Positions 3,687-20,280 of a stretch of 23,513 nucleotides of DNA are shown here, one piece after another (the first letter of the stretch is position 1; every line of letters begins with the position of its first letter). This stretch comes from a virus (taxonomy: Duplodnaviria > Heunggongvirae > Uroviricota > Caudoviricetes). The notes beneath the pieces are model-generated. The model saw only the letters and a program-made list of their open reading frames with translations, had not been told where the DNA came from and searched no databases. The stretch lies in the IMG/VR virus record IMGVR_UViG_2690315815_000002; one strand, 5' to 3'. Position numbers and translations under genes: made by a program.

Positions 3687-4099
3687 GGTTCCCGCCCCTC
3701 AAAACGCTGACGGCAGGCCGTACGTATCAGCCGGAAGAACACCGACGCCACGAGGTAAATCAGCGCAGTAAAAATCCACCCGGCAGCGACCAGCGAGATA
3801 AACGTCGCCACCATCACCACCAGAGCCGCCGCCCGTCTGCGCCACGGCACCGGCTGCAAAAACAGCGACGTGACAATCTTCACGGCCAGCGATTCCGGCG
3901 GCAGCTCCCGCCCGTAGCGTTCCAGCACATACTCCGTGGCATACACGCCGACACCACCGGCAACCACACAGATAACCGTCGCCAGAATCGCCCAGGTGGC
4001 GACAAAACTGACGGCCACGCTCTGCGGGTAAATCAGGGACAGTGCCAGCATCAGCGCCAGCGACACGTTCAGCATCAGTGAAAGGGATAATTTCTTCAT
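3674..4099 (-). CDS. lysA: LysA, lysis-timing membrane protein
   Basis: 141-aa multi-TM ORF at the P2 LysA position. Confidence 0.85.
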   Translation of the reverse strand: MKKLSLSLMLNVSLALMLALSLIYPQSVAVSFVATWAILATVICVVAGGVGVYATEYVLERYGRELPPESLAVKIVTSLFLQPVPWRRRAAALVVMVATFISLVAAGWIFTALIYLVASVFFRLIRTACRQRFEGREPCQS

Positions 4100-4113
4100 G
4101 GTGTTTACTCCGT

Positions 4114-4611
4114 TTAAGCCGGTACGCCGCCGGCGGTACGCCAGACGGTGACCAGTTTTTCCAGTGAATGCTCACGCTGACCGTAACCGGCACCCGGCAG
4201 GGACGCCCAGATATTGCGACAGCGTGAAATGGCGCGCTCAATGCGTCCCGCCCGGATGTCATCCAGTGCACCGCGTTCGCGGATCAACTGAATGGCGAGC
4301 CTGTCCTGTGACAACGGACTGAAATCCGGCAGGGCAAGCTGTTTGCGGTAGTGCGGCCAGAACAGGTAAAGCTGCTGATAGCGACCGGAGGCCGTGGATT
4401 TTTCACCGCGACGGTTAAACACCTTCGCCGGTCGGCCATGCGCGAACGGGTGGTCACTGTAGTCGGTGAAAATTTCCGGCTTTCCGTCCAGTCCGGTGAC
4501 TATCACGTCATAGCCCCGGTTTTTCGTCAGCGGATGATTCGCCGTCCCTTCGGACACGGCCAGCATGTCGAGAAAGGCGGCGATATTCTGATGCGTGTTA
4601 ATTACCGGCAT
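4114..4611 (-). CDS. K: endolysin (P2 gpK, lysozyme)
   Basis: 165-aa ORF recognisable as P2 gpK. Confidence 0.9.
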   Translation of the reverse strand: MPVINTHQNIAAFLDMLAVSEGTANHPLTKNRGYDVIVTGLDGKPEIFTDYSDHPFAHGRPAKVFNRRGEKSTASGRYQQLYLFWPHYRKQLALPDFSPLSQDRLAIQLIRERGALDDIRAGRIERAISRCRNIWASLPGAGYGQREHSLEKLVTVWRTAGGVPA

Positions 4612-7586: not shown

Positions 7587-8441
7587 TCAGCAGTTCGTCA
7601 TCAGGCCGTCACCGCCACCACCGGTGGCCTTGCTGCGGCGCTGCTGGGTCAGACTTTCGGTGTGGTCGAGACTGTTTTTCAGGCGGGTGAATGCCTGGCT
7701 GGTTTCATCCGCCCTGTCAGTCACCGCCTGCTTAAGTGCGGAAAAGGCGGTTTCCATCTCAGCGAGGCGCTGCTCAGTGGCGCTCAGTTTTTCCTGCACA
7801 TGTTCAGCAACAGCGGTCACCGCTTCATGCACGTCATTCAGACGGGCGTCATCGCTGGCCTGTTTGCGGCCAAAAATGGATTTCACCTTTTCGGTCAGGG
7901 CGGTGAACACGGTTTCAGGCAGGTCTTCAAATTCCAGCTCAACGGGCGTTGCCACTGAAATCAGGTTTTCAGGGCTTAATTTGAAGCGGTTCAGAGGGTT
8001 GTGTTTTGCCGTGCGGCAGAATTCCAGGTATTCCGTGCCGAGGCTTGCCGGGTCATCGGTGACGGCCAGCCCCACCAGATAACATTTGCCGGTGTTGGCA
8101 AAGTTCGGCTGAATTTCCATTGAGGTGTAGACCTTCTGCGCGGCCTTGTTCATCGCGATAAGGTCATCGGTCGGGGTGATTTTCGCAAACAGCGCCCATT
8201 TGCCTTTCAGCGCCGAATCATCGTCAATCTTTTCGGCCTTCAGTTCGACCACATCGCCATAACGCTTAAAAATACCGTCAGGCAGGATGCCGCGCAGATG
8301 TTCCAGGTTAATGCGGCAACCATAGACTCGCGGGTCAAAGGTTTCGGCCATTTCCTGAATATCCTGCGCACTGATGACACGCCCGTCACAGGTGTCACCC
8401 TCAACGCCGATACGAAAGAATTTTGAGACTTTTTTTGCCAT
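7587..8441 (-). CDS. O: capsid scaffolding protein O (gpO); native upstream region replaced by an IS end
   Basis: Start at MAKKVSKFFRIGVEGDT within ORF 7587..8468 gives 284 aa, the P2 gpO length; start codon lies inside the IS target duplication. Confidence 0.88.
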   Translation of the reverse strand: MAKKVSKFFRIGVEGDTCDGRVISAQDIQEMAETFDPRVYGCRINLEHLRGILPDGIFKRYGDVVELKAEKIDDDSALKGKWALFAKITPTDDLIAMNKAAQKVYTSMEIQPNFANTGKCYLVGLAVTDDPASLGTEYLEFCRTAKHNPLNRFKLSPENLISVATPVELEFEDLPETVFTALTEKVKSIFGRKQASDDARLNDVHEAVTAVAEHVQEKLSATEQRLAEMETAFSALKQAVTDRADETSQAFTRLKNSLDHTESLTQQRRSKATGGGGDGLMTNC

Positions 8442-8442
8442 T
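8438..8442. repeat. target site duplication CCATT (left copy)
   Basis: CCATT immediately outside the left IS terminus; identical copy at 11024-11028. Confidence 0.75.
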
Positions 8443-8635
8443 TGCGTATTTTCATGAAAGGAGATCACTCAATAACTTCCATCGAGATCGGGTAATAACA
8501 TTTGAACAGATCGCTGAATAACATCGATGGAGATCACTTTTGACTCATTTTGTTATTCAGTGATCTCCATCAATGTTATTGGAACTTCACAGGTGTGTTG
8601 ATCTGTATCTTTTGCCATTCCGGTAAAGGATACCT

Positions 8636-10177
8636 ATGCCAACAGTTCCAATTTCTATGAGAAAACTTAAAGAAATTCTTAGGCTTAAATACGGTGTTGG
8701 ACTCAGCCATCGACAAATTGGTCGTAGTCTTGCAATCTCCCCTTCCGTTGTATCCAGATATGCTAATCGGGCGGCTCAACTTGGCATAAAGCAGTGGCCC
8801 TTACCTACAGGATGGGATGATACAAAACTAAAACATGCGTTCCTTCAGACCCAGGTTAAGATGAAGAAGCACTCTCTGCCTGACTGGGCTACAGTACACC
8901 GGGAACTGCGTAATAAATGCGTGACGCTGCAGCTACTCTGGGAAGAATACTGTGAGCGTAATCCAGGCGGTTTTTACAGCTATAACCATTACTGCCGGAT
9001 GTACCGTGAATGGCTCAAAACCACTTCACCATCAATGCGTCAGGTACATAAAGCTGGCGAAAAACTTTTCGTTGATTACTGTGGACCTACCGTTGGCGTT
9101 ACCGACCCTGAGACCGGAGAAATAAGAACTGCTCAGGTCATCGTAGCTGTTCTCGGGGCATCAAGTTACACATGGGCAGAGGCCACCTGGTCTCAGCAGC
9201 TTGAAGACTGGGTGATGAGTCATGTTCGCTGCTTCCAGTGGTTGGGTGGCGTTCCTGAACTTGTTGTTCCGGACAATCTGAAAAGCGCCACATCCAGGGC
9301 ATGTAAGTATGATCCTGACGTTAACCCTACCTACCAGCAGATGCTTGAGCATTATAATGTCGCAGTTTTGCCTGCGCGGCCACGTAAACCGAAAGATAAA
9401 GCCAAAGCTGAAGTTGGCGTTCAGGTTGTTGAACGCTGGATCATGGCCCGAATCAGGCATGAGATCTTCTACAGCCTTGCATCGCTTAATCAGCGCATTC
9501 GGGAGTTGCTGGAAAGACTGAATAACAAAATAATGCAGAAGTTGGGTTATTCACGTGCAGAACTCTTCATCCAGCTTGATAAACCCGCACTGAAGCCTCT
9601 TCCTGAAGCCAGTTACAGTTACACCCTGGTGAAGAAAGTCAGAGTTCATGCCGATTACCACGTGGAAATCGACAAACATTACTACTCGGTTCCATGTTCG
9701 CTGTTAGGCCAGCAACTGGAAGCATGGATCTCCGGAGAACTGGTAAGACTCTTCAATCAGGGGCAGGAGGTTGCTGTGCACCCGCGCAAGCGTACTTATG
9801 GCTACAGTACCCGCAACGAGCACATGCCTGAAGCTCATCGACAGCATGCCACCTGGACGCCAGAGCGTCTTCTGGAATGGGCGGGGCACATAGGCAGTGA
9901 AACTCATAGTTATGTGCTTCATATACTGAACTCTCGTCCACATCCGGAACAAAGCTATCGCTTCTGCCTTGGACTCCTGAACCTTCATAAAAAATACAGT
10001 AAAGCCAGACTTAATGCAGCATGTGCAAGAGCTCTGAAAACAAAGGTATGGCGTCTGTCAGGTATTAAATCGATCCTGGAAAAAGGTCTGGATAAACAAC
10101 CTGTTCAGGATCCAAAACCAGATCTGTTATCCACGATGGAACACGAAAACGTACGCGGCAGTGAGTATTACCACTGA
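8636..10177 (+). CDS. istA: IS21-family transposase IstA
   Basis: 513-aa ORF with the appearance of an IS21-family IstA (N-terminal HTH-like region then catalytic core); paired with an IstB-type ATPase. Confidence 0.85.
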   Translation: MPTVPISMRKLKEILRLKYGVGLSHRQIGRSLAISPSVVSRYANRAAQLGIKQWPLPTGWDDTKLKHAFLQTQVKMKKHSLPDWATVHRELRNKCVTLQLLWEEYCERNPGGFYSYNHYCRMYREWLKTTSPSMRQVHKAGEKLFVDYCGPTVGVTDPETGEIRTAQVIVAVLGASSYTWAEATWSQQLEDWVMSHVRCFQWLGGVPELVVPDNLKSATSRACKYDPDVNPTYQQMLEHYNVAVLPARPRKPKDKAKAEVGVQVVERWIMARIRHEIFYSLASLNQRIRELLERLNNKIMQKLGYSRAELFIQLDKPALKPLPEASYSYTLVKKVRVHADYHVEIDKHYYSVPCSLLGQQLEAWISGELVRLFNQGQEVAVHPRKRTYGYSTRNEHMPEAHRQHATWTPERLLEWAGHIGSETHSYVLHILNSRPHPEQSYRFCLGLLNLHKKYSKARLNAACARALKTKVWRLSGIKSILEKGLDKQPVQDPKPDLLSTMEHENVRGSEYYH

Positions 10178-10188
10178 TACGGGATCCA

Positions 10189-10938
10189 ATGATGAATCAT
10201 CTTTACGAACAACTGACCGCACTTAAACTCACCGGCTTCCGTGATGCGCTTAAAAAGCAACTTGCTCAACCGGGCACATACCAGGAGCTGGGCTTCGAAG
10301 AACGCCTGTCATTACTGACAGCAGAAGAACTAACCTGCCGTGAAAACAGGAAGGCAGAGCGTCTGATCAAACATGCACGGTTCAGACTTAATGCTGAGTT
10401 ATCAAAGCTGGATTATCGTAACAATAGAGGGCTGGACAGGGCCCTCATCCGTTCACTCAGTCAGGGAAACTGGTTAACCCTGAAACAAAATATTTTACTG
10501 ACCGGGGCCACCGGCAGCGGTAAAACGTTCCTGGCATGTGCACTTGGTCATAATGCCTGCCGACAGGGATACAAGGTCTACTATTATCGCCTTAAAGCGC
10601 TGATGGAACAGTGCTATCAGGGGCATGCTGATGGAAGATACAGCAAACTTTTGACCAGGCTGAATAATAGCGATCTGCTGCTTCTGGATGACTGGGGGCT
10701 GGAACCTCTCTCATCAGAACAGCGTAGCGACCTGCTGGAAATAGTGGATCTGATGTACCAACGAGGCTCAATCATCGTAGTGAGCCAGTTGCCGGTGGAA
10801 AACTGGTACAAAATGATCGGAGACTCCACACATGCGGATGCCATCCTAGATCGACTGGTTCATGGCAGTATCAAGATCGAACTTAAAGGAGAATCAATGC
10901 GGAAAATACAATCTCCGTTGACCGAAGGAGATCAGTGA
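10189..10938 (+). CDS. istB: IS21-family ATP-binding helper protein IstB
   Basis: 249-aa ORF with Walker A (GATGSGKT) and Walker B (LLLLDDWG) motifs, as in IstB/DnaC-like AAA+ proteins. Confidence 0.88.
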   Translation: MMNHLYEQLTALKLTGFRDALKKQLAQPGTYQELGFEERLSLLTAEELTCRENRKAERLIKHARFRLNAELSKLDYRNNRGLDRALIRSLSQGNWLTLKQNILLTGATGSGKTFLACALGHNACRQGYKVYYYRLKALMEQCYQGHADGRYSKLLTRLNNSDLLLLDDWGLEPLSSEQRSDLLEIVDLMYQRGSIIVVSQLPVENWYKMIGDSTHADAILDRLVHGSIKIELKGESMRKIQSPLTEGDQ

Positions 10939-11028: not shown

Positions 11029-11200
11029 GTCAGGAGTCCTGAATAGTGATTAGAGGAGTCACATGTCGGCATCAGTTTCCCGACGATGCGCATCCTCCGC
11101 CATCAGTCCCGGATGGCTTATCACTGACACAACAGCACCTTAGCGAATCGCGGGGCGCGACTCAGTAGCCTTGCCGTGTATTCATCACGGCGAGGTATTC

Positions 11201-12973
11201 ATGACCATCACCACAGACACCACTCTTTTACACGACCCGCGTCGTCAGGCGGCGCTGCTGTACTGGCAGGGGTTTTCCGTGCCGCAGATTGCCGCCATGT
11301 TGCAGATGAAACGCCCGACGGTGCAGAGCTGGAAACAGCGCGACGGCTGGGACAGCGTTGCCCCCATCAGCCGTGTCGAAATGAGTCTGGAAGCGCGGCT
11401 GACCCAGCTCATTATCAAACCGCAGAAAACCGGCGGTGACTTCAAGGAAATTGACCTGCTCGGACGCCAGATTGAACGACTGGCACGGGTAAACCGCTAC
11501 AGCCAGACCGGCAACGAGGCAGACCTTAATCCGAACGTCGCTAACCGCAACAAAGGCGGGCGGCGCAAACCGAAAAAGAATTTTTTCAGTGACGAGGCTA
11601 TCGAAAAGCTGGAGCAGATTTTCTTTGAGCAGTCTTTCGACTATCAGTTGCACTGGTATCGCGCCGGGCTTGAGCACCGCATCCGCGATATCCTGAAATC
11701 CCGCCAGATTGGCGCGACATTTTATTTTTCCCGCGAGGCGCTGCTGCGCGCCCTGAAAACCGGTCATAACCAGATTTTTCTGTCGGCCAGTAAAACGCAG
11801 GCGTATGTGTTCCGTGAATACATCATCGCCTTTGCCCGTCTGGTTGACGTTGACCTGACCGGTGACCCGATTGTCCTGGGCAATAACGGCGCAAAACTGA
11901 TTTTTCTCGGCACCAACTCCAACACCGCACAGAGCCATAACGGTGACCTGTACGTCGACGAGATTTTCTGGATCCCAAATTTTCAGGTTCTGCGTAAGGT
12001 GGCATCAGGTATGGCCTCACAGAGTCACCTGCGCTCGACCTATTTCTCCACCCCGTCCACACTGGCGCACGACGCCTACCCGTTCTGGTCGGGTGAACTG
12101 TTCAACCGGGGACGCGCCAGCGCCGCCGAACGTGTGGAAATCGACGTCAGTCATAACGCCCTTGCCGGTGGGCTTCTCTGTGCGGACGGCCAGTGGCGGC
12201 AGATTGTCACCATTGAGGACGCCCTGAAAGGTGGCTGCACACTGTTCGACATTGAGCAGCTCAAACGCGAAAACAGCGCCGACGATTTTAAAAACCTGTT
12301 CATGTGTGAATTTGTTGACGACAAGGCATCGGTGTTCCCGTTCGAGGAGCTGCAACGCTGCATGGTCGACACGCTGGAAGAATGGGAAGACTATGCACCG
12401 TTTGCCGCCAATCCGTTCGGCTCCCGCCCGGTATGGATTGGTTACGACCCGTCACACCGTGGCGACAGCGCCGGATGCGTGGTGCTGGCACCGCCGGTGG
12501 TGGCCGGTGGCAAATTCAGGATACTTGAGCGTCACCAGTGGAAAGGCATGGACTTTGCCACCCAGGCTGAATCCATCCGCAAACTCACCGAAAAATATAA
12601 CGTCGAATACATCGGTATTGATGCCACCGGCCTCGGTGTCGGCGTGTTCCAGCTCGTGCGCTCGTTCTATCCCGCCGCGCGCGATATCCGCTACACACCG
12701 GAAATGAAAACCGCAATGGTGCTCAAGGCAAAAGACGTTATCCGCCGTGGCTGTCTGGAATATGACGTCAGCGCCACCGACATCACCAGCTCGTTTATGG
12801 CTATCCGCAAGACCATGACCAGCAGCGGACGCAGCGCCACCTATGAGGCCAGTCGCAGCGAGGAAGCCAGCCACGCCGACCTCGCCTGGGCGACCATGCA
12901 CGCCCTGTTAAATGAGCCACTCACCGCCGGTATCAGCACCCCGCTGACATCCACCATTCTGGAGTTTTACTGA
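11201..12973 (+). CDS. P: terminase ATPase (large) subunit P (gpP)
   Basis: Start at MTITTDTTLLHDPRRQAALLYWQGF within ORF 11171..12973; 590 aa, recognisable as P2 gpP. Confidence 0.92.
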   Translation: MTITTDTTLLHDPRRQAALLYWQGFSVPQIAAMLQMKRPTVQSWKQRDGWDSVAPISRVEMSLEARLTQLIIKPQKTGGDFKEIDLLGRQIERLARVNRYSQTGNEADLNPNVANRNKGGRRKPKKNFFSDEAIEKLEQIFFEQSFDYQLHWYRAGLEHRIRDILKSRQIGATFYFSREALLRALKTGHNQIFLSASKTQAYVFREYIIAFARLVDVDLTGDPIVLGNNGAKLIFLGTNSNTAQSHNGDLYVDEIFWIPNFQVLRKVASGMASQSHLRSTYFSTPSTLAHDAYPFWSGELFNRGRASAAERVEIDVSHNALAGGLLCADGQWRQIVTIEDALKGGCTLFDIEQLKRENSADDFKNLFMCEFVDDKASVFPFEELQRCMVDTLEEWEDYAPFAANPFGSRPVWIGYDPSHRGDSAGCVVLAPPVVAGGKFRILERHQWKGMDFATQAESIRKLTEKYNVEYIGIDATGLGVGVFQLVRSFYPAARDIRYTPEMKTAMVLKAKDVIRRGCLEYDVSATDITSSFMAIRKTMTSSGRSATYEASRSEEASHADLAWATMHALLNEPLTAGISTPLTSTILEFY

Positions 12974-14007
12974 TGAGCAAGAAAAAAGGGAAAACACCGC
13001 AACCTGCGGTGAAAACAATGACCGCCAGCGCCCCGAAAATGGAGGCATTCACCTTTGGTGAGCCGGTGCCGGTACTCGACCGCCGTGACATTCTGGATTA
13101 CGTCGAGTGCATCAGTAACGGCAGATGGTATGAGCCACCGGTCAGCTTTACCGGTCTGGCAAAAAGCCTGCGTGCTGCCGTACATCACAGCTCACCGATT
13201 TACGTCAAACGTAATATTCTGGCTTCAACGTTTATTCCGCACCCGTGGCTTTCCCAGCAGGATTTCAGCCGCTTTGTGCTGGATTTTCTGGTGTTCGGTA
13301 ATGCGTTTCTGGAAAAGCGTTACAGCACCACCGGTAAGGTTATCAGGCTGGAAACCTCACCGGCAAAATATACCCGCCGTGGCGTGGAGGAGGATGTTTA
13401 CTGGTGGGTGCCGTCCTTCAACGAGCCGACAGCCTTCGCGTCCGGCTCCGTGTTTCACCTGCTGGAGCCGGATATTAATCAGGAGCTGTACGGCCTGCCG
13501 GAATATCTCAGCGCCCTTAACTCTGCCTGGCTGAATGAGTCGGCCACGCTGTTCCGCCGCAAGTATTACGAAAATGGCGCACATGCTGGATACATCATGT
13601 ACGTCACCGATGCCGTGCAGGATCGCAACGATATCGAAATGCTTCGCGAAAACATGGTGAAGTCGAAAGGCCGCAATAACTTTAAAAATCTGTTTCTCTA
13701 TGCCCCACAGGGGAAAGCCGACGGCATTAAAATTATCCCCCTCAGTGAAGTGGCGACGAAGGACGATTTTTTTAATATCAAAAAAGCCAGCGCCGCTGAC
13801 CTGCTGGACGCGCACCGCATCCCCTTTCAGTTGATGGGTGGCAAGCCGGAGAACGTCGGGTCGCTGGGTGATATTGAGAAAGTGGCAAAGGTCTTTGTCC
13901 GCAATGAGCTTATCCCGTTACAGGACAGGATCCGCGAGATAAACGACTGGCTCGGTCAGGAGGTCATCCGCTTTAAAAACTACTCACTTGACACTGACAA
14001 CGGCTGA
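12973..14007 (+). CDS. Q: portal protein Q (gpQ)
   Basis: 344-aa ORF recognisable as P2 gpQ; ATG overlaps the P stop (TGATG). Confidence 0.92.
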   Translation: MSKKKGKTPQPAVKTMTASAPKMEAFTFGEPVPVLDRRDILDYVECISNGRWYEPPVSFTGLAKSLRAAVHHSSPIYVKRNILASTFIPHPWLSQQDFSRFVLDFLVFGNAFLEKRYSTTGKVIRLETSPAKYTRRGVEEDVYWWVPSFNEPTAFASGSVFHLLEPDINQELYGLPEYLSALNSAWLNESATLFRRKYYENGAHAGYIMYVTDAVQDRNDIEMLRENMVKSKGRNNFKNLFLYAPQGKADGIKIIPLSEVATKDDFFNIKKASAADLLDAHRIPFQLMGGKPENVGSLGDIEKVAKVFVRNELIPLQDRIREINDWLGQEVIRFKNYSLDTDNG

Positions 14008-14187: not shown

Positions 14188-14379
14188 CGCCCGCTTCATG
14201 GGGCGGTTTTAATGCAGTTGCATAGATACTATGGATCCGCACCAGTCCTGACCGCACGCAGCCTGAACGGACATCCCCGACGCATGCAAAAACATTCACT
14301 TGTTGCATGCAACGGCTTATTTAATGACAAATCAACTTAAATTTACAAAATCCACAGGTATGGATACTTTGCGAACATG

Positions 14380-14411
14380 ATAGGCTTACGAGAATTATCG
14401 AGCCTATTTTT
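14380..14411 (+). terminator. hairpin plus T-run immediately upstream of the RBS of the 313-aa gene
   Basis: ATAGGCT (14380-14386) pairs with AGCCTAT (14401-14407), 14-nt loop, then TTTTT; GGAG RBS at 14415-14418. Confidence 0.3.
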
Positions 14412-14425
14412 GACCGGAGCAATGT

Positions 14426-15367
14426 ATGCAAGGTAAAGTTGACGAACAGCAATCCAATGATATTGAAGCTGAGTTTGGATACTATCCAGTAGAAGTTAAC
14501 GTTGAAACTGATGATTTTTCTTTACTTACTTTACCCGGTCTAGCGGAAAAAACAAATCTTATAAACAATCACAGAAATGTTATTAACGGTTGGATATACC
14601 CAGGAAACCAAGAAGTATATAACCTCAATGGAGGCATATCCACAATGCCTTTTAGCCAACGAGTATTTGGCTTACCCAAAACACACTCACTAAAATTAAA
14701 AAATACATCTTCACTAGAAACTCTCAATTTTGCTGTGTGGTGTCTGTCTTTTTTCAAAGGGATAAGATTAACAACTACTGATGCCGGTTTTTTAGACGCA
14801 ACCCCAATAAAACCCAGCAAATTAACTGACTTTATTCTGGTCAAGTGCTCTGAAAAAGAGGTTATAGAATTAGCACTCAAATACATGTCTAGCGAGACAA
14901 AAACCAAACACGCACCAATAAATATAGCAGCAATAGTGCATGCACTATTTTTATCCCAAAACCCACAATACCTTAGCTTCGAAAAATTCCAGTATCTTTA
15001 TATGGCACTGGATAGTTGCTTTGCTTTAACATGGGCAGAAAAGAACAAGTGTACAGAAAAGACTCTAAATCACTCCAGGCGCTTGAAGTGGATCTGCAAA
15101 ACTTATGGAATACCACGACCATCATGGGTTACAGGCAAAAAAAACATTACAAACATCCGCAATGAAAACTTTCATGAAGCTATGTTTCATGGTCAACCAC
15201 TTGGCTTTACCACTATTAACAATTATCAATATGGAGATGACATATTACAACAAATGCAGGCTTTAATTTGCCGATTACTCGTTGCGATTCTTGGTGTTAA
15301 CGCCCCCGATTACATCACATCGAACGTGAACTCTCGTGAATATCATTCACTAACATTAAAAATATAA
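14426..15367 (+). CDS. hypothetical protein, 313 aa, AT-rich, with C-terminal R-x4-H motif (possible HEPN-like nuclease)
   Basis: Complete ORF with GGAG RBS 7 nt upstream; motif R245-NENF-H250 (IRNENFHEAMFHG) at nt 15158-15175; no resemblance to P2 core genes. Confidence 0.6.
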   Translation: MQGKVDEQQSNDIEAEFGYYPVEVNVETDDFSLLTLPGLAEKTNLINNHRNVINGWIYPGNQEVYNLNGGISTMPFSQRVFGLPKTHSLKLKNTSSLETLNFAVWCLSFFKGIRLTTTDAGFLDATPIKPSKLTDFILVKCSEKEVIELALKYMSSETKTKHAPINIAAIVHALFLSQNPQYLSFEKFQYLYMALDSCFALTWAEKNKCTEKTLNHSRRLKWICKTYGIPRPSWVTGKKNITNIRNENFHEAMFHGQPLGFTTINNYQYGDDILQQMQALICRLLVAILGVNAPDYITSNVNSREYHSLTLKI

Positions 15368-15382
15368 AACGACTAAAAATAC

Positions 15383-15408
15383 TCTCCAGTAACAATAAGT
15401 ACTGGAGA
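15383..15408. terminator. hairpin between the convergent 313-aa gene and the membrane-protein gene
   Basis: TCTCCAGTA / TACTGGAGA 9-bp stem with 8-nt loop; T-run follows on the minus strand. Confidence 0.4.
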
Positions 15409-15449
15409 TGTATTATCACTAAAACCAATAAAAAATCACAACTAATGCT

Positions 15450-16049
15450 TTACTTAGATAGTTTGTCTTTAATTATATTCAGAACACCAATTATTAATTC
15501 ACTGATTGGCGTGGCCAACTCAATAGTATTAGATGTCGACTTTGTTCTAAAGTCTTTATCTGTCGGGTGTTGAAATGCTGATTTAAGAAGAGTCAAAAGC
15601 AAAGTTAAACCCACACCAAGGATGAATGCAACAATAGCTATTAGAGAACTGGCCGATAACCAATCGGTGGATAAACCAGAAATAGATTTTCTAACTTTAT
15701 TAGTGTCTGAAGATGGTGTTATCCTCTCATCAGCCATCTTCGGATCCGAAGATAAAGCAGAACATTTTTCTGCTGAAACACAAGTTTGTGTATCTACTTT
15801 TTGTGTTATCGCTGCGGCAATACTGCTTTTCGCTTCCAGCAAGCCATTTCCAACAGCCAAAGCAAAGTTAAGCCCCTGCCATAGAAATGTACAAGCAAAA
15901 CAAAGCACAACGGCAGAGAGCACTAATCGCATACTTCTACGCTCTATACCATCCCGTCTATCTCGCCTTATAAGGATATCAGGATCTGAATCGCCCTTAG
16001 GAGTGGTTCCTTGCTCTGGGGACTGTCCAGATAAATCAATATCAGCCAT
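15450..16049 (-). CDS. hypothetical 2-TM membrane protein (199 aa from the first ATG; 160 aa if the internal ATG at 15932 is used)
   Basis: Two hydrophobic helices (LVLSAVVLCFACTFLWQGLNFALAV and LIAIVAFILGVGLTLLLTLL) separated by a Ser/Ala-rich linker; co-directional with and downstream of the peptidase gene. Confidence 0.5.
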   Translation of the reverse strand: MADIDLSGQSPEQGTTPKGDSDPDILIRRDRRDGIERRSMRLVLSAVVLCFACTFLWQGLNFALAVGNGLLEAKSSIAAAITQKVDTQTCVSAEKCSALSSDPKMADERITPSSDTNKVRKSISGLSTDWLSASSLIAIVAFILGVGLTLLLTLLKSAFQHPTDKDFRTKSTSNTIELATPISELIIGVLNIIKDKLSK

Positions 16050-16090
16050 AAAAAAATCACCCTTACATGTACAAACGTAAAGGTGATTTT
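16050..16090 (-). terminator. intrinsic terminator between peptidase and membrane-protein genes, directly abutting the downstream ATG
   Basis: On the minus strand: UCACCUUUAC / GUAAGGGUGA 10-bp stem (one G-U pair), 10-nt loop, then seven U, followed immediately by the ATG at 16049; the 3' arm contains the only SD-like sequence (AAGGGUG). Confidence 0.6.
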
Positions 16091-16115
16091 AAACAGGTTA
16101 AAAGTTAAAGGCTAA

Positions 16116-16601
16116 TTAATAAGCCATTCCTAAGCTCTTTAAGCGCCAATGCATAGCGGCTTCTGATACATTAAAGATGCTTGCTAATCTCAAAGTGCTA
16201 TCAATACCTTCTCTGGATACCAATTGACGTATAGCAGACTCAGGCATTAACAACTCAGCAGCAAACTTGTTTGCTTCAACCTCACGGTAATCACGAGCAC
16301 CTGTTGAATAATTCCCGACATTATCCCGATGGTACTCTCCGTCCTGGGTATGCCCCAGCACATGATGACCTAACTCGTGTGCAACAGTAAAACGTTGACG
16401 ATTAGAATGTTCACTAGAATCAAAATAAATCCTATGGACACCCTTTTTGATGACAGCCAGACCGCTTAACCCATCGTTGTTATAAGCCGATTCCTCAAGT
16501 GCTTCAACACGAGCACCCCACGCTTTAGCAAGCTTAAACGGATCGACAGGTAGTCGGCGATCCCAATAGCGGTCAAGCAGTTTTTTAGCTGCATAGCTCA
16601 T
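16116..16601 (-). CDS. ImmA/IrrE-family (M78) zinc metallopeptidase, 161 aa, with no adjacent HTH partner
   Basis: HEXXH motif HELGHHVLGH and the downstream EANKFAAELLMP signature typical of ImmA/IrrE peptidases; strong SD AGGAGG 5 nt upstream of the ATG. Confidence 0.8.
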   Translation of the reverse strand: MSYAAKKLLDRYWDRRLPVDPFKLAKAWGARVEALEESAYNNDGLSGLAVIKKGVHRIYFDSSEHSNRQRFTVAHELGHHVLGHTQDGEYHRDNVGNYSTGARDYREVEANKFAAELLMPESAIRQLVSREGIDSTLRLASIFNVSEAAMHWRLKSLGMAY

Positions 16602-16637
16602 GGTTGCCTCCTACGTTAAAAAAGTTAAGTATGCACA

Positions 16638-16666
16638 GCCATATCACAGTTGTTATTTTATGTCAA
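16638..16666 (-). promoter_or_regulatory. putative sigma70 promoter for the peptidase gene
   Basis: On the minus strand: perfect -35 TTGACA (16661-16666), 17-nt spacer, weak -10 TATGGC (16638-16643), about 35 nt upstream of the ATG. Confidence 0.35.
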
Positions 16667-17322
16667 GGCTGTTTTTCAGCCATTACTATAACACTAATCC
16701 ACGTTTTCCCATAACATTTTCGACATCATATATGCATTCCGTTCTGCATATAGAGCTTATCTTTGCTGATAACACGAGATGAATACGCGCAACCAGTCCA
16801 CGATTTATAAAAAACCTTATAAATCAGAATATTGAGTTAAAAAAACACTAACTACTTGCGCAGCGCGTTGTTAAACCTCAGCGACACTAAAAGAAAATTT
16901 CAGAGTCACCGAAGTTTCCACAGAAAACGCAACTTAATGATTTTATTGGAATTTATGTCGCTATTTTTAATTACTTGTTTAAATCCGCCATATTGAAACT
17001 GTGCATTTCTAGCCACTCACAACTTTAAAAAATTTACATTGCTTTCAAGACCTTATCATCCGTAGTCTCTGCTTTTTACTTTGAGCTATATCAAAAAAAG
17101 CTCAAACATCCTTGATGCAAAACCAGTATTACACAACATAAAATGCAACCAGAAACAACGACATACTATATGTTGTGTTGTTCAGGTCCTCTGTTCGGTG
17201 ATATGCCAGATCACTTTGCGTTTAAACAGAGCATTATTTCAGGGCAAGACTTCGCTCAATAGTCACTCCGCCTTAGAAGCGCATATATCGGCGGAAATTG
17301 CCCTCTGCTTACAGGAGGCGAT

Positions 17323-17436
17323 ATGAAGAAGTGCTATTACTGCATTCTCGTTCTGGCCCTCTTTGGCTATCCATATGGTAGTCCGAGTGGTTTGTCAGTA
17401 AACGTCAGTAATATCCATGTAAGTATTTTTCTTTAG
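17323..17436 (+). CDS. small hydrophobic peptide, 37 aa (MKKCYYCILVLALFGYPYGSPSGLSVNVSNIHVSIFL)
   Basis: SD AGGAGG at 17313-17318, ATG at 17323, stop at 17434-17436, terminator 12 nt downstream. Confidence 0.4.
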   Translation: MKKCYYCILVLALFGYPYGSPSGLSVNVSNIHVSIFL

Positions 17437-17448
17437 TATGCTTCAAAC

Positions 17449-17478
17449 AAAAAAACCACCTGCCAGGGTGGTTTTTTT
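17449..17478. terminator. bidirectional rho-independent terminator
   Basis: A-run (17449-17455), CCACC-TGCCAG-GGTGG hairpin, T-run (17472-17478). Confidence 0.65.
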
Positions 17479-17738
17479 GCGCCCGTCATCAATCCGATGA
17501 AAGACTAGCAAGACTTCGCTCGAGATGAATTATGCTTCGACATAAAGTCACTCGCAATGGTTTTATTAACCGAAATAGATGCTCTTTTATGACTCGAATC
17601 AAATAGCTGCCTTCAATTACATGCTAACGATTCAATACAATTTAGCCTTCTGATTCAACACGCTATTGCTCCTCATCTACCTTAGAGGTGCTTCGCATAA
17701 TCCATTCAAAGACATATAAAATCACGCTGTATTTTTAC

Positions 17739-20015
17739 TCAAATGGGTAACAAAAATCCCGGCCAATCATCAGCGACCTGATAAGTGAAAGGTTTCCCGT
17801 CATAATTTACGGTCGCGCCACGCGCCAGCGCCTCAAGCTCCCATCGTTGCGGCCTGATACCGTTCTGAGCGAGATCAACGCGGATACGGGTAATTTGCAA
17901 TCGTTCCGACCGGGTCAGTCTGGCCGATGGTGCAATTTCATGCGGTTTTAACGGGCTTCCGTTTCTTTGCTGACGGTTTGGCGTTCTCCGGTCGTGTTTT
18001 AATGCGCCCCTGAGCGCCCTCACGACCTCCGGGTCATTCCATTCGATAACATCGTCATCAACCAGATTAAGCACTGCTGCGGCGTGCTCAGAAGGTGTGG
18101 GAGCCGGTAACGAAGTATCACCACCGGTGAGCTTTCCACAGTTATTGACAGGACTCCGAGGCGCGGCGATGCCGCTTTTTAAAGTCAAAGGCTCAACGAC
18201 CGGAACTTTCGGCACAATGCGCCAGTCCGTCGTTCTGGTGATATGAATATGACGCGCGCCGAGATGCGGCGCGTAAATGCCGACCACCCTCTCGACCTCT
18301 TCCTCGTACTCGTTAACGTCATCCGACGGGCTACGGGCGACCCTGACAGTCTGACAATCGCGCGGGACATTTGCCCCACCCTGCGCGCTGATATACAACG
18401 CAAAATCACCACTGTCTGCGGCGGCGCGTGCAGCCTCGACGCGCTCGTCAAACTCATCAGCAATGCTGACGCCGCGCGGCAATTTGCGTAGTTCACGGTA
18501 AGCCCCCATTGTCGGCAGACCAACCGTTTTAAATTGCGGGATGCGCCACGTTGACGCCCATGCGGTAACAGCCGCAGCAGTGTCTTTCAGCGGCCTGCCG
18601 GTATCGTTATCGAGCTGACCATCCAGTGCATAGCCGTCGATGTTTTTTGAGATGTATTTCGCGATATACCCCGCAGCACCGCCCCGGTTAAGGTGTTTTG
18701 CCTGAAAACGGTTTCGCGCGGCTCCTCTTTCGTCGCCATCCTCTTTGAGCGCATAGCGACGCATGATTTCGATAATCTGGTTACGCTGGCGCGGATTACA
18801 AAAAAGCATCATATGCCAGTGCGGCGTTCCGTCGTGGTGTGGCTCGACGACACGCAAACCGTAGACCTGTAAATCATTATCCTTGAATGCCGTGCGCATC
18901 AGGCTCCAGATACGGCAGAGATAACGCTGCGCATCCTTTGGATTAAATGCCTCATCGTTCCAGCCGTGATTTAGCTGGACGGTTTTACTTTCGCCTTTTC
19001 TGACCTGACGTGTCGGGTGATACTTTGACGGCGCGGTCAGCGTGATAAACATCCCCACATCACCCTCTGCTGCGGCGTAACGCTCAATACCGGCAATGGT
19101 GTTCATCAGCTCCATCCGGCGAATTTCAGGATTAGAAATACTGCCCATCACCTTACTGATAAGGTCGATGCGCTCGCCGGTTTCCCTGTTTTCGAGATCA
19201 CACGATTTAAGAAATTCCAGATTTGCCTGGCGGCGTGCACGCACATCACGAATGGCATGTTTACTGGCATAAGGAGAACGGTCTTTATTGACCTCCCCGA
19301 CAGCAATCAGTAACGCCTCATGCCAGCGCATACGCTGGCCTTTAAGCTGATGGGTCCACCACTCATCGTTAAACAGACGGGCAATGGCAGAATATGCCTG
19401 CCTCGTGGTCATCTGCCCTTTACGGTATTTTTTCCAGTAGAGAGGGGAAATATTGAAAGCACGTGCAGCACCAGCAACATGACCATAGAGGTGAGCCTGC
19501 GCCTCATCCGTAAACAGCGATTCTTTTTCGCCATGCGCATCCACCCAGGCATCGCAGAGTTCCTCATACATCATGAAAAGCTGCGATGAGATACGGGCGG
19601 CAAACTTTTTCAGCTCCTTGTCATTCATCCCCGGCAGACGCGCATAATGGCCACGCTCTGCCAGAAACAGCAACGACGCGTCGGTGTTCATTTCATGGCG
19701 CTGATTCACACGCTCAATGCGCGGCCATAAACGACGCTGAAAAGTGGATGTGAGAAAATAAAACCCGTGCACCGGGCTTTTATTGCGCCGGATGTAGTCA
19801 TAGCGTGAAGTAAACAGCGAGCGCAAAAAGTAAGGCAGGCGGTTAATCGTGGATAAAACCCCTTGCACCTGACGCATCTCGTCACGTGTAAGGGGTCTTT
19901 CGCGCCCGACAGCCTCGCGTGGCGCGTTCCATGCATAAGCACCGGTAAACGCCTTACCGGTGCCTGCGGCAAATGCTGACGGAGGGACAAAACGCCCGGA
20001 GGCTTTAACGGCCAT
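17739..20015 (-). CDS. A: replication initiation protein A (gpA, rolling-circle nickase)
   Basis: ORF 17739..20057 recognisable as P2 gpA; ATG start chosen at MAVKASGRFVPPSAF (the longer track ORF begins at a TTG). Confidence 0.9.
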   Translation of the reverse strand: MAVKASGRFVPPSAFAAGTGKAFTGAYAWNAPREAVGRERPLTRDEMRQVQGVLSTINRLPYFLRSLFTSRYDYIRRNKSPVHGFYFLTSTFQRRLWPRIERVNQRHEMNTDASLLFLAERGHYARLPGMNDKELKKFAARISSQLFMMYEELCDAWVDAHGEKESLFTDEAQAHLYGHVAGAARAFNISPLYWKKYRKGQMTTRQAYSAIARLFNDEWWTHQLKGQRMRWHEALLIAVGEVNKDRSPYASKHAIRDVRARRQANLEFLKSCDLENRETGERIDLISKVMGSISNPEIRRMELMNTIAGIERYAAAEGDVGMFITLTAPSKYHPTRQVRKGESKTVQLNHGWNDEAFNPKDAQRYLCRIWSLMRTAFKDNDLQVYGLRVVEPHHDGTPHWHMMLFCNPRQRNQIIEIMRRYALKEDGDERGAARNRFQAKHLNRGGAAGYIAKYISKNIDGYALDGQLDNDTGRPLKDTAAAVTAWASTWRIPQFKTVGLPTMGAYRELRKLPRGVSIADEFDERVEAARAAADSGDFALYISAQGGANVPRDCQTVRVARSPSDDVNEYEEEVERVVGIYAPHLGARHIHITRTTDWRIVPKVPVVEPLTLKSGIAAPRSPVNNCGKLTGGDTSLPAPTPSEHAAAVLNLVDDDVIEWNDPEVVRALRGALKHDRRTPNRQQRNGSPLKPHEIAPSARLTRSERLQITRIRVDLAQNGIRPQRWELEALARGATVNYDGKPFTYQVADDWPGFLLPI

Positions 20016-20280
20016 ATGAGCCAAAAGCCTCTGAACAACGCTTGCTGAGTTGCTCAACCTGCACGTTTAAATCAGCAAAAGACTTTGCGCTTCCGGTCAG
20101 AATATCGTGATGCATCAGGCCGGAAACGAGCTGGCTTAATTTCGGGTAATAACCAACCACCGACAGCCATTCCTGACCGGCGTTTTTACCGCTTTCCGCT
20201 CTCTTTTTCTCGTGGAGAATAAACTGAAAGCTGTCACTGGTAACGACATAACGTTCGCCAATTTCAATACGAATACTCAT
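20005..20280 (-). CDS. hypothetical early protein (P2 orf83 position)
   Basis: 91-aa ORF in the small-ORF block between B and A; stop overlaps the A start region. Confidence 0.7.
   Translation of the reverse strand: MSIRIEIGERYVVTSDSFQFILHEKKRAESGKNAGQEWLSVVGYYPKLSQLVSGLMHHDILTGSAKSFADLNVQVEQLSKRCSEAFGSYGR

Follow-up and report, generated by a model that had tools for sequence, protein, structure and literature searches.

Introduction

Partial intrinsic (Rho-independent) terminators inside operons set protein ratios, as exemplified by T1 of the rpsU-dnaG-rpoD operon and by the rplL-rpoB attenuator. To our knowledge, neither of these has been reported to hold the Shine-Dalgarno (SD) sequence of the distal gene in its stem, or to make contact with the distal start codon. 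The principle of partial intra-operon terminators has been discussed before (PMC4824070). In bacteriophage T4, the SD sequences of e, soc, 49 and I-TevI are located in a helix on transcripts derived from upstream, which bars the untimely production of a dangerous protein such as lysozyme or an endonuclease (PMC3014915). The abortive-infection gene abiD1 of Lactococcus lactis has a terminator just upstream, and its full-length mRNA arises by read-through only (PMC2661086). The ribosome-binding site (RBS) and a poly-U stretch of abiD1 are sequestered, basal expression is very low, and the phage protein Orf1 activates translation (PMC2661086).

Here we analyse a hairpin between the two genes of a prophage cassette, for which abiD1 is the closest documented case. 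Both have a terminator, here a putative one, directly upstream of a defence-type gene, together with masking of the RBS and poly-U stretch; the masking, the dependence on read-through and the very low basal expression are, in our case, predicted. However, abiD1 has a terminator and, separate from it, an RBS-masking stem-loop in its 5' leader, both of them weak (-9 kcal/mol), whereas here a single stable hairpin (-14 to -18 kcal/mol) between two operon genes would play both roles. With the T4 genes the locus shares an SD sequence that lies, here by prediction, in a helix on transcripts from upstream. The T4 structures, however, are not terminators, and late promoters within their 5' arm circumvent them; for our locus the case for an internal promoter is weak, with a -10-like hexamer at the foot of the hairpin and no -35 element. 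The likeness to rpsU-dnaG-rpoD T1 and rplL-rpoB lies in a Rho-independent terminator that would lower the dose of the distal of two co-transcribed genes.

Results

The cassette and its genomic context

The window, by which we mean the whole stretch of 23,513 nucleotides analysed here (IMG/VR record IMGVR_UViG_2690315815_000002), is a P2-like Escherichia coli prophage, with the replication protein gpA on the minus strand (17739-20057; PF05840) and the terminase gpP (11171-12973) and portal gpQ (12973-14007) on the plus strand. A low-GC island (~14300-17740; 30-46% GC, compared to 55-60% in the flanks) separates the portal/cos end from gpA. It occupies the site of the P2 old/tin cargo hotspot, which according to two studies serves as a reservoir of anti-phage systems (PMC9519451; PMC9122126). 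The hairpin sits within a two-gene cargo cassette on the minus strand, of which the upstream gene (16116-16601) encodes an ImmA/IrrE (M78) metallopeptidase of 161 aa with an HEXXH motif (PF06114, 3.8e-21), and the downstream gene (15450-16049) a membrane protein of 199 aa with two transmembrane helices. The identical cassette is present in 47 of 5426 complete E. coli genomes, and our literature searches returned no description of a system of ImmA and a membrane protein in P2 hotspots.

The best PADLOC model for the peptidase is capP (1e-30), and its RefSeq product name agrees with the assignment. An ImmA/IrrE (M78) peptidase is what the cassette has in common with the ImmR-ImmA and CapH-CapP modules. 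Among the ORFs flanking the peptidase we found no helix-turn-helix (HTH) gene that could encode an adjacent repressor. Because the peptidase lacks an HTH partner, the cassette is not an ImmR-ImmA or CapH-CapP module; its partner is a membrane protein instead, and control of that partner appears to be RNA-based rather than repressor-based.

The membrane protein belongs to phrog_8096, a family of unknown function, and has no match in Pfam, PADLOC or NCBIfam. We collected 52 homologs of it. The predicted order is a cytoplasmic N-terminal region, TM1 (approximately residues 41-65), a loop with two conserved Cys residues, TM2 (approximately residues 133-155), which is strongly conserved (AFILGVGLTLLLTLLK), and a C-terminal amphipathic helix. 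An AlphaFold model is helical, with a confidence (pLDDT 62, pTM 0.37) that is too low to justify a fold search.

A block upstream of the peptidase gene (16607-16666, minus strand), conserved in homologs from differing genomic contexts, holds the putative expression signals of the cassette. These comprise a candidate -35 element with the perfect sequence TTGACA (16666-16661), located ~65 nt upstream of the ATG, a weak candidate -10 element TATGGC (16643-16638), and the likely ImmA SD sequence AGGAGG (16612-16607), which is strong, invariant and 5 nt 5' of the ImmA ATG. A small hairpin, GGCUG-AAAAA-CAGCC (16667-16681, minus strand), abuts the putative -35 element and is conserved across Enterobacterales cassettes from varied contexts; it may be an upstream insulator, a terminator or an operator.

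At the other end of the cassette there is a terminator-like hairpin (15374-15408, minus strand; stem 15408-15383; -12.2 kcal/mol) with the tail GUAUUUUUAG, which is shared with a convergent gene on the plus strand. Most homologous cassettes likewise terminate in a GC-rich hairpin followed by a U-run. The convergent gene is an ORF of 313 aa (14426-15367, plus strand; phrog_5937, unknown function), a second cargo gene of the hotspot, which has no Pfam, PADLOC or NCBIfam match and is missing from most homologous cassettes. Just 3' of the stop codon of the membrane-protein gene, the sequence GTGATTTTTTATTGG (15425-15439, minus strand) is similar to the part of the internal hairpin that runs from the 3' arm through the U-tract to ATGG (GTGATTTTTTTATGG). 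It has no complementary 5' arm, and may be a chance occurrence or a remnant.

Between gpA and ImmA, a 1.1-kb AT-rich stretch (16602-17738) is found without a convincing ORF. Two Peduovirus P2 records contain it at 87% identity, without annotation, and Salmonella phage MET_P1_103_31 contains it at 99.8%; its only Rfam matches were below threshold. An IS21-family element (8636-10938, plus strand), consisting of a 513-aa transposase with rve and Mu-transposase C domains and a 249-aa IstB ATPase, has split the capsid-scaffold gene (7587-8468) from the terminase gene by its insertion. P2-type genomes have their divergent late promoters in this region, so that the prophage may be defective.

Start codon of the membrane-protein gene

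Judged by comparison with homologs, the ATG at 16049 (16047-16049, minus strand) is the genuine start of the membrane-protein gene. The RefSeq annotation uses the same start, and the N-terminal motif MADIDLSG is shared as MA-D-(I/V)-D-L-S-G by homologs with 45-63% identity. C-terminal to the motif come a Pro/Gln-rich linker, which varies in length, and a conserved D..ERR.MR segment that immediately precedes TM1. Over the first 11 codons, nine homologs differ from the window by 3-9 synonymous and 0-3 nonsynonymous changes, and the frame from this ATG stays open over N-terminal extensions of 39-100 codons. An internal start as the sole start was rejected, since the N-terminal extension is under purifying selection and its frame is kept.

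The internal Met40 (15930-15932, minus strand), located just before TM1, is nearly invariant across the membrane-protein family. Many homologs have a strong SD sequence 5' of it, with rare Arg codons (AAGGAGG; e.g. GAAAGGAGGGGGATG), and the corresponding sequence in the window is weak as an SD (GAGCGTAGAAGTATG). Some gene callers begin the membrane protein at Met40, resulting in versions of 144-168 aa, and a second, shorter isoform is possible.

Structure of the intergenic hairpin

Immediately before the membrane-protein gene, the minus strand reads 5'-AAAAUCACCUUUACGU-UUGUAC-AUGUAAGGGUGAUUUU-UUU-AUG. A sequence-only reading of this DNA had described a 10-bp stem, a 10-nt loop and seven U residues directly before the start codon, and each of these elements is exact: UCACCUUUAC (16086-16077) pairs with GUAAGGGUGA (16066-16057), including one G.U pair, the loop spans 16076-16067, and the seven U residues occupy 16056-16050, the last of them adjoining the A of the ATG. 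The SD-like element AAGGGUG, which it had named as the only one and placed in the 3' arm, is found there at 16064-16058.

The minimum-energy fold is larger, and adds to the 10-bp core two inner pairs, which reduce the loop to 6 nt, and four outer A-U pairs. The resulting RNA hairpin of 16 bp (16053-16090, minus strand) has its 5' arm at 16090-16075, its loop at 16074-16069 and its 3' arm at 16068-16053. The four outer pairs are formed by the upstream A-tract (16090-16087), which is thus part of the 5' arm, with the first four residues of the U-tract. In an 86-nt context the predicted folding energy is -23.6 kcal/mol (z -4.77), and none of 200 shuffled sequences folds as well; the values are -14.1 kcal/mol (z -4.9) for the 12-bp core and -17.9 kcal/mol (z -7.3) for the 16-bp form. 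The stem is AU-rich, with 4 G-C pairs out of 16, and contains two G.U pairs in the window; homologous hairpins have 9-16 bp with 3-6 G-C pairs.

Two features by which intrinsic terminators are recognized, a stable stem-loop that contains G-C pairs and a run of U directly 3' of the stem, are both present. From its sequence and its retention in homologs, the U7 tract (16050-16056, minus strand) would be the tail of the terminator as well as the spacer between SD and AUG. The site was missed by a consensus terminator scan of the window; the probable reason is that maximal extension of the stem pairs four of its seven U residues with the A-tract. The omission is a limit of the scan rule, and not evidence against the hairpin.

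Conservation and covariation across homologous cassettes

Loci were collected by exact-protein look-ups, a DNA pattern scan and profile-guided scans that included viral and metagenome collections; two scans of a species-representative genome collection confirmed no homologs. We obtained 57 loci with 27 distinct spacers between ImmA and the membrane-protein gene (among them loci L002-L012, L080-L083 and L097-L109), in which the identity of ImmA to that of the window ranges from 100% to 42%. The order is constant, with ImmA (161-174 aa), a spacer of 56-74 nt (66 nt in the window) and the membrane-protein gene, and the partner is kept in 57 out of 57 loci. The cassettes occur in P2-like prophages, on contigs with P1-type genes (RepL, P1 Gp16), on contigs with ParA/SopB partition genes, in other prophages, and in chromosomal islands of Salmonella, Pectobacterium, Serratia, Enterobacter, Citrobacter and Vibrio.

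The layout of A-tract, hairpin, U-tract and ATG is found in 26 of the 27 distinct spacers, and in all 26 the U-run ends 0-1 nt 5' of the ATG; the spacer of the most distant locus (L082) has no hairpin. The U-tract is U6-U8 or UUUUUA in nearly all homologs, with UUUUA and UUAUU as the two exceptions. Three unrelated stem sequences occupy the same position in this layout: AUCACC/GGUGAU, GCCACC/GGUGGC and GCCCUC/GAGGGC. The Enterobacterales class has the form AAAUCACC...GGUGAU-U6-8-AUG, and the second class AAAGCCACC...GGUGGC-U6-7-AUG, with the variants GCCAC...GUGGC-U7-AUG and GCCAC...GGGUGGCUUAUUAUG. The hairpin of the Vibrio group, AAGCCCUCA-AAAA-UGAGGGCUU-UUUAAUG, has the appearance of a textbook GC-rich terminator.

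Covariation was assessed in a MAFFT alignment of 23 distinct sequences over a 14-pair helix. In this alignment 92.5% of the cells are paired, compared to 31-66% when the 3' partners are slid by 1-3 columns, and two-sided changes are found in 7 of the 14 pairs. The covariation score is 0.249 versus 0.135 for shuffled alignments, and none of 500 shuffles reaches 0.249. All of these figures are conservative, because the two Vibrio rows, being misaligned, speak against the helix, although the shuffle control overstates the significance because the sequences share descent. A few lineages contribute the strongest covariation. In Enterobacterales the inner stem covaries (UUUAC/GUAAG, AUUAU/AUAAU, AUCAU/AUGAU), and the outer stem AUCACC/GGUGAU is invariant despite diverged synonymous sites in the flanking genes. 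Across the sequences compared, the conserved architecture together with the covariation is more than chance.

An inverted repeat of the form ATCACC...GGTGAT could also act at the level of DNA, as an operator or another protein-binding site. The outer half-sites are indeed invariant in Enterobacterales, and across the family the two strands fold about equally well, the sense strand being the more stable in 13 of 26 cases. However, the spacing of the half-sites varies (18-20 bp), the inner stem covaries, and in distant homologs the sequence is wholly replaced while the adjacency of hairpin, U-tract and ATG persists. In addition, the cassette encodes no DNA-binding protein, and in the window the two G.U pairs make the sense RNA 5.9 kcal/mol more stable than the antisense RNA. 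A DNA operator is thus unlikely, and we give this interpretation very little weight. Strand asymmetry was dropped as a general argument for RNA, since it is true in the window and fails across the family; because the antisense strand folds about equally well, the strand assignment rests on the polarity of the U-tract and on the adjacency of SD and AUG.

Predicted masking of the Shine-Dalgarno sequence

The only SD-like element of the membrane-protein gene, GGGUGAU (16056-16062, minus strand), which was assigned from its duplex energy with the anti-SD and its retention in homologs, lies within the 3' arm, and the AUG is not part of the helix. Its strongest pairing with the 3' tail of 16S rRNA is AGGGUGAUU. 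In the window this SD:anti-SD duplex reaches -10.2 kcal/mol, against -18.4 kcal/mol for the hairpin, so that the SD is predicted to be sequestered. In every lineage, the hairpin (-10.6 to -19.8 kcal/mol) is likewise stronger than the SD:anti-SD duplex (-2.9 to -10.2 kcal/mol). The predicted probability that the SD is unpaired is 0.001 at 30 °C, 0.003 at 37 °C, 0.004 at 42 °C and 0.05 at 70 °C. The earlier claim that the hairpin would occlude initiation agrees with these predictions, which place the SD in the stem and more than 99% paired at 37 °C. An RNA thermometer was rejected, as the hairpin does not melt between 20 and 50 °C, with the SD still masked at 42 °C.

The 5' arm contains AUCACC, which is the same sequence as the anti-SD segment of 16S rRNA and can be regarded as an intramolecular copy of it; in the 16S 3' tail, the complement of GGUGAU(U) is the segment GAUCACC (-9.1 to -10.2 kcal/mol). 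All Enterobacterales homologs have GGUGAU unchanged, and other lineages keep GGUG or GAGG, so that an SD-like GGUG/GAGG is found 8-9 nt 5' of the AUG in every lineage. The invariance of the outer stem may be explained by a double constraint, namely the pairing of the 3' arm with 16S rRNA and its concealment by the 5' arm. Opening of the region from -20 to +15 would cost 24.6 kcal/mol for the membrane-protein gene and 13.5 kcal/mol for ImmA; the former value is the second highest of the 23 gene starts in the window, high yet not unique. Masking of the SD to more than 99% leaves the making of any membrane protein unaccounted for, which counts against the explanation that we favour below.

Probable termination and read-through

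One role of such a structure would be that of a pure SD mask without appreciable termination, in which the U-tract is a single-stranded landing or standby site (for S1) and initiation is slow and tunable. The AU-rich stem, the pairing between A-tract and U-tract, which leaves three free U residues in the best fold, and the strong predicted occlusion of the SD are consistent with such a role. For abiD1 the poly-U has been suggested to aid translation, and removal of the terminator left reporter output unchanged (PMC2661086). However, the A-tract, the stem and at least five to seven U residues directly 3' of it are kept in three unrelated hairpins, including the GC-rich one of the Vibrio group. 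Since neither the U-run nor the A-tract is needed for mere masking of an SD, their retention in all three classes points to an intrinsic terminator, and we regard a purely translational function as rather unlikely.

The ImmA stop codon is located 25 nt 5' of the hairpin in the window (25-31 nt in Enterobacterales, 26-48 nt elsewhere), which leaves room enough for the hairpin to form. For the lambda terminator tR2 in E. coli, a trailing ribosome reduced termination, and efficiency was maximal beyond ~30 bp (PMC4824070); the gap of 25 nt is within the range where the trailing ribosome still lowered termination at tR2 (PMC4824070).

On the minus strand between 16050 and 16600, a promoter scan detected no sigma-70-like promoter with a match of at least 9/12. 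Because no such promoter is found between the genes, the membrane-protein gene seems to depend on read-through from upstream. A sigma-70 promoter of its own was rejected as a candidate, as only a -10-like hexamer without a -35 element is present.

That hexamer, TAAAAT (16086-16091, minus strand; 5/6 match), lies at the 5' foot of the hairpin, and could be an internal promoter or a mere part of the A-tract. In the former case the locus might be a switch with the fold-back inhibition logic of T4 e, soc and I-TevI or of IS10: the hairpin would silence transcripts from upstream, and an internal start in the 5' arm would yield an mRNA without AUCACC, with a free SD and without termination. A start ~7 nt downstream of the hexamer would indeed produce such an AUCACC-less mRNA, and T4 provides the precedent (PMC3014915). 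TAAAAT, TAGAAT or TACAAT is found at the same place in most lineages despite their differing hairpin sequences, and in one subgroup the sequence TATAAAT(C) matches the T4 late promoter TATAAATA at 7 of 8 positions (consensus from PMC3014915). The same succession of hairpin, U-tract and ATG also precedes an endolysin gene in unrelated phage contigs. However, the best -35 element is poor (3/6), there is no TG extension, and the hexamer was not flagged by the promoter scan. Moreover, the hexamer of the ATCAT subgroup lacks the key final T, the window has just 5 of the 8 positions of the T4 late consensus, and a U-tract would in any case call for an A-rich run to pair with. On balance, we consider an internal promoter of this kind unlikely.

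The sequence-only reading had gone further and proposed an attenuator, with expression of the membrane protein only upon antitermination. We find no support for this part of the proposal, as no conserved antiterminator, leader peptide, Rfam family or thermometer behaviour was found. In RNAs cut off ahead of the 3' arm, the 5' arm of the window forms no pairs and those of homologs show no consistent pairing, so that a conserved alternative pairing is absent. The 66-nt spacer contains no ORF, and thus no leader ORF, nor did we find a recognisable aptamer or protein-binding motif that might act as a sensor, or any gene that could be named as an activator. No Rfam family matches at its gathering threshold, and the best weak match (PyrR, 26 bits versus a threshold of 54, E 0.76) is at the level of chance (E <=1).

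A regulated attenuator, in which a signal such as a phage protein induces read-through or opens the hairpin, would nevertheless suit a cassette in the P2 defence hotspot, and abiD1 offers a precedent for a phage protein, Orf1, that activates a structure-masked Abi gene (PMC2661086). The distance of 25-31 nt between stop codon and hairpin is also in the range of the ribosome-proximity effect on tR2 (PMC4824070). Against it stand the negative findings on alternative pairing, leader ORF, Rfam match and temperature response, and since the cassette occurs in P2-like, P1-like and other contexts, it cannot depend on the antiterminator of one phage. We find this kind of regulation quite improbable.

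Of the interpretations considered, we think it probable that the hairpin is a constitutive, intra-operon intrinsic (Rho-independent) terminator, of which the 3' arm would double as the SD of the downstream gene and the U-tract as the spacer between SD and AUG. Transcription would begin at the ImmA promoter, and ImmA would be translated from its strong, open AGGAGG. Many transcripts would then end in the U-tract, with the 3' end on the AUG at 16049 or immediately 5' of it. RNA that is read through would refold into the same hairpin, in which GGGUGAU is held by the anti-SD-like AUCACC, and initiation would be rare. The net result would be a fixed, high ratio of peptidase to membrane protein, with a low basal level of the latter.

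Related hairpins in other phage loci

The same design is found before unrelated genes in a separate set of viral loci (L013-L079; e.g. L033 at 4079-4116, L025 and L063), which have AAUCACC/GGUGAU arms and at least 6 U residues before the ATG. The downstream genes include a 179-aa endolysin (phrog_181), a capsid protein (PF05065) and a Cys-rich family of 130-136 aa that has no Pfam or PHROG match. In the hairpin before the endolysin gene, compensatory changes in the stem are present between L033 and L025. Because this design precedes unrelated phage genes, it is not unique to the cassette, and phages seem to employ terminators that double as masked RBSs repeatedly.

Discussion

A brake on the membrane-protein gene at two levels, transcription and translation, is well supported by the sequence comparisons. 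The element most likely acts at both levels, with termination suggested by the retained U-run and A-tract, and the masking predicted from the folding energies. We further infer that termination occurs, that translation of the membrane protein is low, and that such an arrangement may serve to avoid the toxicity of a membrane effector in a prophage cargo cassette.

We speculate that the membrane protein is a toxic effector, or alternatively the substrate of ImmA. The idea of a toxic effector, like that of an involvement of phage infection, comes from the context only, namely the P2 cargo hotspot, the capP-like peptidase and the two transmembrane helices. Taken one step further, the hairpin might be an infection-gated lock on a new two-gene abortive-infection system, composed of ImmA and a small, pore-like membrane protein. 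The terminator and the SD mask would keep the effector nearly silent in uninfected lysogens. Upon infection, the invading phage might transcribe from the -10-like or T4-late-like box, which would give an mRNA without the hairpin and with a free SD, or a phage RNA-binding protein might melt the stem, by analogy with Orf1 and abiD1. In a variant of this scenario, the masked AUG and Met40 would give rise to two isoforms, in a ratio set by the hairpin, as with a holin and antiholin. We consider this scenario as a whole, including its routes and its variant, distinctly unlikely.

The hairpin by itself leaves the general understanding of gene regulation unchanged, as it is a device of a known kind, comparable to those of AbiD1 and T4 gene e. 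It combines two known brakes, partial termination and SD masking, in a single structure of 38 nt, and could be a compact and portable part, consisting of a terminator and a masked RBS, for the dosing of toxic genes. The cassette itself is uncharacterised, and our literature searches found no paper on the pair of ImmA and membrane protein. Within this mobile cassette of Enterobacterales and Vibrio, the hairpin has been upheld through complete turnover of its sequence. Such persistence implies that a low and tightly bounded dose of the membrane protein relative to the peptidase is essential to the cassette. The implied constraint on dose makes the cassette a good candidate for an uncharacterised toxic-effector, defence or exclusion module in the P2 hotspot.
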